A DNA stretch of 64,000 bases, from the NCBI RefSeq assembly GCF_055900595.2, contig NZ_CM148325.1. One strand, 5' to 3'. Below the pieces are notes generated by a model. The model saw only the letters and a list, made by a program, of their open reading frames with translations. It was not told where the DNA came from and ran no database searches. Below are positions 20,059 through 22,507 of this stretch, in pieces; position 1 is the stretch's first letter, and each line of letters opens with the position of its first letter. A program made the translations under genes and the position numbers.

Positions 20059-22395
20059 ATGAAGCAAATTCGTCTGCTGGCGCAGTATTATGTTGACCTG
20101 ATGATGAAGTTAGGTCTGGTGCGCTTCTCAATGTTGCTGGCGCTGGCCCTCGTCGTTCTTGCCATTGTTGTACAAATGGCAGTGACCATGGTGCTGCATG
20201 GTCAGGTCGAAAGCATTGATGTTATTCGTTCTATCTTCTTTGGTTTGCTGATTACGCCGTGGGCGGTCTACTTTCTATCGGTGGTCGTCGAGCAACTGGA
20301 GGAGTCACGACAACGTCTGTCACGGCTGGTGCAAAAACTGGAGGAGATGCGCGAGCGCGATTTGAGCCTCAACGTTCAGTTAAAAGATAATATTGCCCAG
20401 CTAAATCAGGAAATTGCCGTTCGTGAAAAAGCGGAAGCAGAACTGCAGGAAACCTTCGGCCAACTGAAAATTGAAATTAAAGAGCGCGAAGAGACACAAA
20501 TTCAGCTCGAGCAGCAATCCTCATTCTTACGTTCCTTCCTTGATGCTTCACCCGACCTGGTTTTTTATCGTAACGAAGATAAAGAGTTTTCCGGCTGTAA
20601 CCGCGCGATGGAGCTGCTGACCGGAAAAAGCGAAAAACAACTGGTTCACCTGAAACCTGCTGATGTTTACTCACCGGAAGCCGCTGCGAAAGTCATTGAA
20701 ACCGATGAAAAAGTGTTCCGTCATAATGTGTCACTGACCTATGAGCAGTGGCTGGATTATCCCGACGGACGCAAAGCCTGCTTTGAAATCCGTAAAGTGC
20801 CGTACTACGACCGCGTGGGTAAACGTCACGGTTTGATGGGCTTTGGTCGTGACATTACCGAGCGTAAGCGGTATCAGGATGCACTTGAACGCGCCAGCCG
20901 CGACAAAACGACGTTTATTTCCACCATCAGTCACGAATTGCGTACACCGCTGAACGGTATCGTCGGCCTGAGTCGCATTCTGCTGGATACCGAACTCACC
21001 GCCGAGCAGGAAAAATATCTCAAAACCATCCATGTTTCTGCCGTCACGCTGGGGAATATCTTCAACGATATTATCGACATGGATAAGATGGAACGGCGCA
21101 AGGTCCAGCTTGATAATCAGCCGGTTGATTTCACCAGCTTCCTTGCCGATCTGGAAAATCTCTCCGCATTGCAGGCGCAACAGAAAGGATTGCGCTTTAA
21201 TCTGGAGCCGACGCTGCCATTACCGCATCAGGTCATTACCGACGGGACGCGTTTACGGCAGATCCTGTGGAATCTCATCAGTAACGCCGTCAAATTCACC
21301 CAGCAAGGCCAGGTTACCGTGCGCGTGCGCTACGATGAAGGCGATATGCTGCATTTTGAAGTGGAAGACTCTGGTATCGGCATTCCGCAGGATGAGCTGG
21401 ATAAAATCTTCGCCATGTATTACCAGGTGAAAGACAGTCACGGCGGTAAGCCCGCCACTGGCACCGGTATTGGTCTGGCCGTTTCTCGTCGTCTGGCGAA
21501 AAATATGGGCGGCGATATTACGGTTACCAGCGAACAGGGCAAAGGTTCCACCTTTACGTTGACGATCCACGCACCGTCGGTAGCAGAAGAGGTTGATGAT
21601 GCGTTTGATGAAGACGATATGCCTTTACCGGCGCTGAATGTGCTGCTGGTGGAAGACATTGAACTGAACGTGATTGTCGCACGCTCTGTGCTGGAAAAAT
21701 TAGGTAACAGCGTTGATGTCGCCATGACCGGCAAGACGGCGCTGGAGATGTTTAAACCGGGCGAATACGACCTGGTGTTGCTGGATATTCAGTTGCCAGA
21801 TATGACCGGGCTGGATATCTCTCGTGAACTGACGAAGCGATATCCGCGCGAGGATTTACCACCGCTGGTAGCCTTAACCGCTAACGTGCTGAAAGACAAA
21901 CAAGAGTACCTCAATGCTGGAATGGATGATGTGCTGAGTAAGCCGCTTTCTGTTCCAGCGCTAACCGCGATGATCAAGAAATTCTGGGATACCCAGGATG
22001 ATGAGGAGAGCACGGTGACGACAGAAGAGAACAGTAAATCAGAAGCATTGCTCGATATTCCCATGCTGGAACAGTATCTCGAACTTGTAGGACCGAAGCT
22101 GATTACCGACGGGTTAGCGGTGTTTGAGAAGATGATGCCGGGCTATGTGAGTGTACTGGAGTCGAACCTGACGGCGCAGGATAAAAAAGGCATCGTCGAG
22201 GAAGGGCATAAAATTAAAGGCGCGGCGGGTTCAGTGGGGTTACGCCATCTGCAACAGCTGGGTCAGCAAATTCAGTCTCCTGACCTTCCTGCGTGGGAAG
22301 ATAACGTCGGTGAATGGATTGAAGAGATGAAAGAAGAGTGGCGTCACGACGTAGACGTGTTGAAAGCGTGGGTGGCAAAAGCCACAAAAAAATGA
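20059..22395 (+). CDS. arcB: aerobic respiration control sensor histidine kinase ArcB
   Basis: 778-aa ORF with two N-terminal TM segments, PAS, HisKA H-box (ISHELRTPLNG), receiver and HPt domains; recognised ArcB. Confidence 0.95.
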   Translation: MKQIRLLAQYYVDLMMKLGLVRFSMLLALALVVLAIVVQMAVTMVLHGQVESIDVIRSIFFGLLITPWAVYFLSVVVEQLEESRQRLSRLVQKLEEMRERDLSLNVQLKDNIAQLNQEIAVREKAEAELQETFGQLKIEIKEREETQIQLEQQSSFLRSFLDASPDLVFYRNEDKEFSGCNRAMELLTGKSEKQLVHLKPADVYSPEAAAKVIETDEKVFRHNVSLTYEQWLDYPDGRKACFEIRKVPYYDRVGKRHGLMGFGRDITERKRYQDALERASRDKTTFISTISHELRTPLNGIVGLSRILLDTELTAEQEKYLKTIHVSAVTLGNIFNDIIDMDKMERRKVQLDNQPVDFTSFLADLENLSALQAQQKGLRFNLEPTLPLPHQVITDGTRLRQILWNLISNAVKFTQQGQVTVRVRYDEGDMLHFEVEDSGIGIPQDELDKIFAMYYQVKDSHGGKPATGTGIGLAVSRRLAKNMGGDITVTSEQGKGSTFTLTIHAPSVAEEVDDAFDEDDMPLPALNVLLVEDIELNVIVARSVLEKLGNSVDVAMTGKTALEMFKPGEYDLVLLDIQLPDMTGLDISRELTKRYPREDLPPLVALTANVLKDKQEYLNAGMDDVLSKPLSVPALTAMIKKFWDTQDDEESTVTTEENSKSEALLDIPMLEQYLELVGPKLITDGLAVFEKMMPGYVSVLESNLTAQDKKGIVEEGHKIKGAAGSVGLRHLQQLGQQIQSPDLPAWEDNVGEWIEEMKEEWRHDVDVLKAWVAKATKK

Positions 22396-22507
22396 CCCCG
22401 GCTAGACCGGGGTGCGCGAATACTGCGCCAACACCAGGGAAATCTTGGCTGCGCCGTAAATTTTTATGATGAGTTACAAGGGCACAGCACTTTTTTTCAG
22501 GCCGCAC
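22386..22507 (-). ncRNA. arcZ: ArcZ small RNA (Hfq-dependent), convergent with arcB
   Basis: Reverse complement reads gtgcggcctgaaaaa...gtgctgtgcccttgtaactcatcat...ggcgcagccaagatttccctggtgttggcgcagtattcgcgcaccccggtctagccggggtcattttttt, matching the recalled ArcZ sequence and its terminator overlapping the arcB 3' end. Confidence 0.65.

Follow-up and report, generated by a model that had tools for sequence, protein, structure and literature searches.

The arcB–elbB spacer carries an intact arcZ gene, and a terminator shared with arcB is unsupported

Tracks built from open reading frames show two protein genes, arcB and elbB, separated by a seemingly empty spacer. We asked what the minus strand of this spacer encodes in a window of 64,000 nucleotides (the whole stretch of DNA analysed, from contig NZ_CM148325.1 of assembly GCF_055900595.2), and whether an RNA that ends there shares its terminator with arcB. 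The original prediction had placed the small RNA ArcZ at 22386–22507 on the minus strand, missing from the open-reading-frame track, with a terminator hairpin common to both genes. Its point about the track was correct: arcZ is annotated in the K-12 reference, and PGAP-annotated genomes with the identical sequence name only arcB and elbB here, which is why the spacer looks empty. The arcB reading frame matches the NF008302 equivalog at 1481.6 bits (cut-off, 838) and stops with a TGA at 22393–22395, and elbB matches NF008747 at 355 bits. The locus is laid out as follows.

20059–22395, plus strand: arcB, oxygen-sensing histidine kinase, convergent with arcZ (open-reading-frame list, NF008302)
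22386–22507, minus strand: arcZ, primary transcript of 120–122 nt (Rfam, terminator scan, colinearity with K-12 b4450)
22386–22395, both strands: overlap of arcZ with the arcB coding sequence, 8–10 nt depending on the RNA 3' end (from the stop position)
22508–22624, unstranded: control region shared by arcZ and elbB, 117 bp between the arcZ +1 and the elbB start
22514–22542, minus strand: putative arcZ promoter, -35 GTAACA at 22542–22537, 17-nt spacer, -10 TATCTT at 22519–22514 (spacing from the K-12 +1)
22570, minus strand: C where K-12 has G, at -63 in the promoter region of arcZ (K-12 alignment)
22625–23278, plus strand: elbB, divergent from arcZ (PGAP start, NF008747)

A covariance-model search, the check named with the prediction, returned a match to the Rfam ArcZ family RF00081 at 22400–22507 on the minus strand, with a score of 118.7 bits against a gathering score of 66 bits; its E-value of 1.5e-26 is far beyond chance. 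The match is untruncated, covering model positions 1–106 of 106; the model ends within the terminator, and a terminator scan carries the arcZ 3' end on to 22386. In a base-by-base alignment to the 121-nt K-12 arcZ (b4450), the +1 falls on 22507 and the counterpart of the K-12 3' end on 22387, and the ArcZ 3' end listed by K-12 Term-seq (3350696, plus strand), which is abundant in those data, maps to window position 22388, inside the U-tract. The three estimates give a 3' end between 22386 and 22388, and the predicted 122-nt interval therefore holds to within 1–2 nt. We assign a probability of about 97% to 22386–22507 on the minus strand being arcZ (alias sraH or ryhA), the gene of the Hfq-dependent small RNA ArcZ. 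This RNA has been on record since 2001, with an Rfam entry of its own and a place in the annotation of the K-12 reference; its presence at the arcB–elbB locus is thus already known, and the gene here is ordinary and intact.

The upstream region is identical to K-12 from -1 to -62. A sigma-70 consensus scan of 22100–22900 called no promoters, but its threshold was 9 of 12 matches and GTAACA-17-TATCTT, with its weak hexamers, scores 8. Because the region is identical to K-12 and the candidate falls one match short, we did not take the empty scan as absence of a promoter.

Within the transcript, 119 of 121 nt are identical to K-12 arcZ, and both substitutions lie in the 5' half. The parts of the RNA can be placed as follows, all on the minus strand.

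22492: nt 16, A instead of the K-12 C, in the 5' single-stranded part (K-12 alignment)
22448–22488: 5' stem-loop 1, nt 20–27 paired with nt 53–60, removed by processing (Rfam structure line)
22463: nt 45, A instead of the K-12 U, in the loop of stem-loop 1 (K-12 alignment)
22440–22444: RNase E site GA|UUU, cut between 22443 and 22442 (consensus match)
22439–22424: CCCUGGUGUUGGCGCA, following the RNase E site (read directly from the sequence)
22386–22442: processed active ArcZ, the 3' 56–57 nt with seed, stem-loop 2 and terminator (K-12 identity)
22412–22435: invariant core GGUGUUGGCGCAGUAUUCGCGCAC, which includes stem-loop 2 (nt 80–94, 22428–22414; cross-species exact match)
22413–22395: terminator hairpin ACCCCGGTCTAGCCGGGGT (ACCCCGGUCUAGCCGGGGU), 8 pairs of which 6 are G-C (terminator scan)
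22386–22392: terminator U-tract, U7 (U6 in K-12; sequence, scan and K-12 alignment)

The processed part, with its boundary placed by sequence identity, is 100% identical to K-12, including the conserved 3' region UUUCCCUGGUGUUGGCGCAGUAUUCGCGCACC that holds the seed and stem-loop 2; the predicted conservation of the seed is thereby confirmed. The 56-nt processed form and its role have been reviewed (PMC11331407), and the RNase E consensus for ArcZ is RN|WUU with a required downstream CCCUGGUGUUGGCGCA (PMC11331407). Both determinants are present at 22444–22424, and cleavage is predicted here. Upstream of the processing site, the arms GCUGUGCC and GGCGCAGC pair as stem 1 in the Rfam alignment, whereas the thermodynamic minimum free energy (MFE) structure favours pairing of the ArcZ 5' arm with the seed instead.

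On the minus strand the originally quoted hairpin is followed by CATTTTTTTG and forms a canonical ArcZ terminator, with the T-run ending at 22386 as predicted. Read on the plus strand, the U-tract spells a pair of Lys codons and the third base of a Thr codon at the end of arcB; the sequence UCA-UUUUUU after the ArcZ terminator stem is complementary to the arcB stop and its final pair of Lys codons. The convergent overlap was likewise predicted correctly. It covers 8–10 nt of the arcB coding sequence (9 nt in the K-12 annotation) and agrees with the description of ArcZ as encoded past the end of arcB on the other strand, the two 3' ends usually overlapping by about 10 nt (PMC11331407).

With these parts in place, ArcZ would be transcribed leftward from 22507 and end at the intrinsic terminator formed by the hairpin at 22413–22395 and U7. 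The precursor of about 121 nt would be cut by RNase E between 22443 and 22442 (GA|UUU), freeing a stable 3' fragment of 56–57 nt whose 5' seed would pair with target mRNAs, activating rpoS translation and repressing targets such as flhDC, mutS, sdaC and tpx. In low oxygen, arcZ transcription would be repressed via ArcB/ArcA, and ArcZ would in turn lower arcB expression. The roles of Hfq and RNase E, the target set, regulation by ArcAB and the effect on arcB are taken from the literature (PMC11331407, PMC4152358); in K-12 and Salmonella, RNAs of about 121 and 56 nt, Hfq binding, induction in aerobic stationary phase and repression by ArcAB have been reported (PMC11331407, PMC4152358). As the seed is that of K-12, pairing with the rpoS leader is expected, provided that leader is conserved; rpoS itself lies outside the 64,000-nt window. 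Judged by its sequence, the intact active part in this divergent E. coli lineage should allow ArcZ control of RpoS, motility and mutagenesis to run normally.

The same architecture recurs across Enterobacterales. At least 120 species-representative genomes contain the 24-nt core GGTGTTGGCGCAGTATTCGCGCAC without a mismatch; the columns of the core are also invariant in an alignment of 117 sequences, as expected, loci having been selected by the core pattern. The terminator stem covaries: 98.5% of cells are paired across 117 species, double-sided changes number 60, a count that none of 500 shuffles reached (23.9 in shuffles), and the pairing is lost once partners are slid against each other. The T-run is 6–8 nt long in 118 of 120 species. 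Among 117 species a hairpin is retained at the position of stem 1 with 80 different arm sequences, and in a per-sequence search the mean uninterrupted stem of this 5' hairpin was 7.9 bp against 5.6 bp in shuffles. MAFFT with RNAalifold did not recover it among the 117 sequences, as 5' halves from different clades do not align. At the other end, arcB is convergent with arcZ in all 119 loci scored (from at least 119 species). The overlap with the arcB coding sequence is 9–11 nt in 100 of the 119 species (84%), 18 loci having been placed by tblastn with the ArcB C-terminus, and the remaining 19 (16%), where the overlap shrinks to at most 2 nt, gives way to a gap or is an outlier, nevertheless retain ArcZ.

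We then considered the claim that the ArcZ hairpin also terminates arcB. Being palindromic, the hairpin can form in RNA from either strand, but on the arcB-sense side it is followed by GTGCGCGAATAC (GUGCGCGAAUAC) and not by a U-tract. The terminator scan of the window spacer scored the minus strand only, with nothing on the arcB-sense strand. Every one of 115 species has a canonical terminator on the ArcZ strand, and in none of them does a U-tract follow the hairpin in the arcB sense; the combination that defines a bidirectional terminator, a hairpin plus a U-tract on each strand, is therefore absent from the window and from 115 of 115 species. Terminator-like sites in the arcB sense occur in just 11 of the 115, none of which uses the ArcZ hairpin. 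In the spacer, K-12 Term-seq lists the ArcZ end but none in the arcB sense; a rare arcB mRNA may, however, fall below its threshold. We rejected the shared bidirectional arcB/arcZ terminator as unsupported and unlikely, and the cross-species data argue against its simple form.

These observations also bear on how the two genes regulate each other. The original prediction called the convergent overlap the known basis of reciprocal ArcB/ArcZ regulation. Reciprocal repression is indeed documented (Mandin & Gottesman 2010, as cited in PMC11331407 and PMC4152358), but antisense pairing as its basis is described in a 2024 review as "speculated" (PMC11331407), and the popular statement that the overlap explains mutual repression is not established. 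The main arm of mutual repression is the repression of arcZ via the ArcB/ArcA system; this control may or may not be direct, as an ArcA ChIP study found no ArcA site upstream of arcZ. One could still regard the element as mainly cis-acting, with a bidirectional hairpin terminator and the short 3' overlap mediating mutual repression. The near-perfect palindrome, the overlap kept at 9–11 nt in most species and, in K-12, Rho-terminated transcription on the ArcZ strand that runs antisense into arcB all fit such a view. We consider it unlikely, given that the arcB-sense hairpin is without a U-tract in the window and in all 115 species, that Term-seq has no arcB-sense end (with the same reservation about rare mRNA), that antisense pairing is regarded as speculative, that species beyond the usual overlap range keep ArcZ, and that extreme conservation falls in the trans-acting seed rather than in the overlap. 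Far less probable again, to the point of being negligible, is that the interval is not an independent gene but simply the arcB 3' UTR plus elbB upstream sequence, or part of a 119-aa reading frame (22573–22214, minus strand). That frame is open over the whole interval and includes in frame the GUG at the ArcZ +1; however, it has no NCBIfam match, starts from an ATG located before the ArcZ +1, and contains the canonical terminator. We rejected the coding reading, as the conservation is not codon-like: 33 consecutive columns are invariant across 117 species without third-position wobble, and indels throughout the 5' part disrupt every frame. The full-length RF00081 match and the abundant K-12 Term-seq end on the ArcZ strand likewise speak for ArcZ as a gene in its own right.

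The allele of arcZ in the window is rare: among 5,416 complete E. coli genomes, 13 carry it. The longer U-tract, U7 against U6 in K-12, arises from a synonymous ACT>ACA change in arcB. We asked whether this gene, although ArcZ by descent, might be functionally altered, the changes at nt 16 and nt 45 or the longer U-tract shifting folding, RNase E cleavage or termination efficiency and hence ArcZ dosage. In silico, U45A contributes an extra A-U pair (-0.6 kcal/mol), and the cleavage site is predicted to be unpaired less often (probability 0.22, down from 0.35); together with the rarity of the allele and a distal SNP in Dickeya solani that abolishes ArcZ processing (PMC11331407), this gives the idea some footing. 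Against it, the precursor is predicted to fold as in K-12, with an unchanged MFE topology and a base-pair distance of 1; both sites lie in a part that is hypervariable between species; the A45 state is also found in other Escherichia-lineage representatives (L050 and L113); and the known processing determinants are all intact. An altered allele is accordingly improbable in our estimation, and by its sequence the rare allele (nt 16 C>A, nt 45 U>A, U7) likely behaves like that of K-12. RNase E processing is also likely unchanged in these models, and we say no more than likely because the allele is rare, U45A slightly lowers accessibility of the site and the D. solani SNP provides a precedent.

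All three changes of the rare allele extend A/T runs. On the arcB-sense strand, nt 16 C>A turns CUGUUUUUC into CUUUUUUUC, two nucleotides past the antisense copy of ArcZ stem 1. A very long shot is that the allele reflects more than neutral drift and that this change could give arcB read-through transcripts a new or stronger intrinsic terminator some 100 nt beyond the stop codon. Such a terminator would set the length of the ArcZ-complementary arcB 3' UTR, uncouple arcB from elbB in this lineage and retune ArcB/ArcZ feedback.

The nearest known relative is K-12 arcZ itself (b4450, NC_000913.3 3350577–3350697), which occupies the same arcB–elbB locus with the same +1, terminator hairpin and 56-nt processed part, and from which the window allele differs by A at nt 16, A at nt 45, U7 and C at -63. 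ArcZ of Salmonella, Citrobacter, Yersinia, Photorhabdus, Xenorhabdus, Proteus, Pantoea and Erwinia has the same seed and stem-loop 2 and a convergent arcB. As in the window, the terminator of Enterobacterales orthologues is followed by UCA or UUA and a U-run; their 5' halves, in contrast, are unrelated in sequence, with the hairpin alone kept. Representatives of Photorhabdus, Xenorhabdus, Proteus, Providencia and Morganella have a CCAA/UUGG terminator stem and not CCGG/CCGG. DsrA and RprA resemble ArcZ as Hfq small RNAs that activate rpoS by base pairing that opens its leader (PMC4152358), but they are unrelated in sequence, have no comparable 3'-fragment processing and are not convergent with a sensor-kinase gene; an Rfam covariance-model search gave no match to either in the window.

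The gene had further been described as conserved and unaffected by rearrangements elsewhere in the window. This is right for the active 3' part, which equals that of K-12, and needs qualifying for the gene as a whole, given the rare allele. The "rearrangements" amount to one IS10 insertion at 5186–6514 (breakpoint set by blastn), which lies 16 kb from arcZ and is the sole structural difference from the closest genomes.

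Window positions 22386-22507 hold, on the minus strand, a genuine, intact and previously known arcZ gene with the sequence GUGCGGCCUGAAAAAAAGUGCUGUGCCCUUGUAACUCAUCAUAAAAAUUUACGGCGCAGCCAAGAUUUCCCUGGUGUUGGCGCAGUAUUCGCGCACCCCGGUCUAGCCGGGGUCAUUUUUUU. When the entire window was scanned with Rfam 15 at gathering thresholds, the ArcZ model RF00081 matched 22400-22507 (-) at 118.7 bits (cut-off 66; E = 1.5e-26), an untruncated match covering all 106 model positions. The model stops within the ArcZ terminator, and the remaining 3′ part comes from a consensus scan. The locus comprises:

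20059-22395, plus strand: arcB (NF008302 equivalog, 1481.6 bits)
22393-22395, plus strand: arcB stop codon, TGA
22413-22395, minus strand: ArcZ terminator hairpin from the consensus scan, 8 pairs (6 G-C), then CAUUUUUUUG
22625-23278, plus strand: elbB (NF008747, 355 bits)

The original prediction had placed ArcZ at this interval and strand and proposed a search with the Rfam ArcZ covariance model as a check; that search passed, the full-length match and the terminator scan bear the placement out, and the hairpin sequence quoted then, ccccggtctagccgggg, lies exactly at 22413-22395. With the arcB TGA at 22393-22395, arcZ shares 8-10 nt with the arcB coding sequence, the exact figure being set by which U is the last. 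That arcZ is missing from the ORF track, as had also been pointed out, reflects PGAP, which in genomes with the same allele annotates arcB and elbB alone here. A coding reading, a 119-aa minus-strand ORF at 22573-22214, was rejected: the ORF has no family match and contains the terminator, and its conservation shows no codon periodicity.

In the annotation of E. coli K-12 MG1655 (hereafter K-12), arcZ (b4450) is a 121-nt ncRNA at 3350577-3350697 (+) that overlaps arcB (3350689-3353025, -) by 9 nt. Its +1 aligns to window 22507 and its 3′ end to 22387; in published K-12 Term-seq data ArcZ ends at 3350696 (+), equivalent to its nt 120 and to window 22388. Within the 121 nt the window differs from K-12 at two positions, both in the 5′ half, and it is identical from -62 to +15 and across the entire processed 3′ part. 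Including the flanks, the differences (K-12 to window) are:

22386: A>U, one base beyond the K-12 end, U-tract 6 to 7
22463: nt 45, U>A
22492: nt 16, C>A
22570: G>C, at -63

The change at 22386 is silent for arcB (a Thr codon), and that at 22570 is the one substitution of the window lineage in the divergent arcZ/elbB control region (22508-22624). The substitutions at 22386, 22463 and 22492 all extend A/T homopolymers. The 122-nt window allele recurs unchanged in 13 of the 5,416 complete E. coli genomes having arcZ, and nearly all the others carry the K-12 allele (98.3% identical). Across the remainder of the window, genomes with this allele match at 99.9-100% and thus form one minor lineage. 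Ten of 5,426 complete E. coli genomes gave no ArcZ match, and one genome in the complete-genome collection has a second match, on a plasmid.

ArcZ is Hfq-dependent and is cut by RNase E at RN|WUU, with CCCUGGUGUUGGCGCA needed directly downstream; the 56-nt 3′ fragment alone pairs with targets, which include rpoS (activated) and also flhD, mutS, sdaC and tpx (PMC11331407; PMC4152358). The processing site in the window reads GA|UUU-CCCUGGUGUUGGCGCA, so the cut is predicted between 22443 and 22442, leaving a product at 22442-22386. A degenerate, functionally altered allele is very improbable, as all known ArcZ sequence determinants are intact and the K-12 and window precursors, folded side by side, share one MFE topology, at a base-pair distance of 1. 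No effect of C16A on the predicted precursor fold was seen; U45A contributes an extra A-U pair (-0.6 kcal/mol) and reduces predicted cut-site accessibility from 0.35 to 0.22. We infer from its sequence that the window allele would work as the K-12 allele does, and it is probably rare and neutral. With A at nt 16, the arcB-sense strand gains a T7 run at 22491-22497, two nt past the antisense copy of stem 1, the 5′ hairpin of ArcZ; that the resulting U7 run alters arcB transcript ends in this lineage is very improbable.

In both precursors the 5′ arm (nt 18-27) is predicted to pair with the region of the seed and stem-loop 2 (nt 79-88), a pairing that fits a review's account in which processing frees the seed (PMC11331407). 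Two copies of GGCGCAG in ArcZ (nt 53-59 and nt 79-85) give the 5′ arm two possible partners: the seed/stem-loop 2 copy in the thermodynamic MFE (-42 kcal/mol) and nt 53-60 in the three-hairpin structure of Rfam (-32 kcal/mol). The segments concerned are:

22421-22490, minus strand: ArcZ alternative-pairing segments, nt 18-27, 53-60 and 79-88

It had further been claimed that the hairpin is shared with an arcB terminator on the opposite strand, and that the overlap is the known basis of reciprocal ArcB/ArcZ regulation. The palindrome is predicted to form in the arcB-sense RNA too, but is followed there by GUGCGCGAAUAC, and the consensus scan found no plus-strand terminator in 22100-22900. Among 115 listed arcZ loci from species-representative genomes, a canonical terminator is present on the ArcZ strand in all 115; any terminator-like site appears on the arcB-sense strand in only 11, and at this hairpin in none. 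A shared terminator is unsupported, in the window and in these loci. K-12 Term-seq has no arcB-sense 3′ end in the spacer, where arcB mRNA may be below its reach. As for regulation, mutual repression is documented: ArcZ lowers arcB expression, and at low oxygen arcZ transcription is repressed through ArcB/ArcA (PMC11331407; PMC4152358). The overlap is not established as its basis, arcB mRNA-ArcZ pairing being 'speculated' in a 2024 review (PMC11331407). Two published results complicate the picture of reciprocal regulation. K-12 DirectRNA-seq with and without bicyclomycin places a region of Rho termination at 3351461 (+) on the ArcZ strand, ~765 nt beyond the ArcZ end and antisense to arcB (~window 21623, -), with downstream coverage rising from 20 to 418 reads on Rho inhibition; in a ChIP study of ArcA, no site for it was found upstream of arcZ. 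As a contributing mechanism, a mainly cis-acting or shared-terminator element is unlikely, and such a reading leaves the identity of ArcZ unchanged.

In a single scan across species-representative genomes, the 24-nt core GGTGTTGGCGCAGTATTCGCGCAC was exact in at least 120 loci, those among the matches listed coming from Escherichia, Salmonella, Citrobacter, Enterobacter, Yersinia, Rahnella, Pantoea, Erwinia, Photorhabdus, Xenorhabdus, Proteus, Providencia and Morganella. arcB is convergent to ArcZ in all 119 listed loci with sufficient flank; the end of the T-run overlaps the arcB CDS by 9-11 nt in 100 of these, in 9 the overlap is 0-2 nt, in 7 the two are separated by 4-10 nt, and 3 are outliers. 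In every listed locus UCA or UUA (the stop-codon complement) and a run of 5-9 U come directly after the ArcZ hairpin, and of the 102 species among the matches listed whose ORF was resolved by script, 101 have an ArcB with a C-terminal -KK. The U-tract thus represents the last arcB codons in the opposite direction; at 22386-22395 the UCA/UUA plus U-tract is the complement of the arcB stop and last two Lys codons. Such an arrangement points to a possible dual constraint, with the kinase C-terminus fixed by the sRNA terminator or the other way round.

Three pairs of the terminator stem alternate between G-C, G-U and A-U in the listed loci. Terminator-stem cells are paired in 98.5% of cases versus 95.9% in shuffles (0/500 as high), with 60 double-sided changes versus 23.9 expected (0/500), and pairing falls to 28-44% once partners are slid. 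Stem-loop 2 is invariant among the listed loci, which is uninformative because it lies inside the 24-nt search pattern. The ArcZ 5′ halves are not alignable between clades; a hairpin ending just 5′ of the processing site is kept, with 80 different arm pairs and a mean uninterrupted 5′ stem of 7.9 bp versus 5.6 bp in shuffles.

The rearrangements that the original prediction mentioned elsewhere in the window amount to a single IS10 insertion, the only structural difference from the closest genomes:

5177-5185 and 6515-6523: IS10 target duplication, 9 bp, AGCATCACT
5186-6514: complete IS10, 1,329 bp, 16 kb from arcZ
5231-5300, minus strand: RNA-OUT, in IS10 (Rfam)

IS10 lies between nanR and nanA, ~20 nt 5′ of the nanA start codon, is not in the closest genome (NZ_CP098223.1), and probably cuts the nanATEK operon off from its promoter. 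Positions 25001-64000 are collinear with and 100% identical to several genomes; 50001-64000, the region of argG, a yhbX-like phosphoethanolamine transferase, nusA, infB and pnp, has only 90-95% identity to 5,061 of the ~5,430 E. coli genomes that are complete, and at least 99% to just 8. The whole window is from a rare, divergent E. coli lineage, each segment being matched at 99% or more by 8-18 genomes. In the closest genome, a dcuC-family transporter gene beside sspB (2539-3906 of its corresponding region, L123; ~window 2539-3906) is an annotated pseudogene with an internal stop. The other RNA features, all above the Rfam gathering score, each lie at the expected K-12 neighbourhood position:

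44007-44128, plus strand: greA leader
50781-50864, plus strand: tRNA
54471-54544, plus strand: tRNA
54636-54736, plus strand: rimP leader
59435-59505, plus strand: naRNA4
61017-61131, plus strand: S15 leader
61360-61531, minus strand: SraG sRNA
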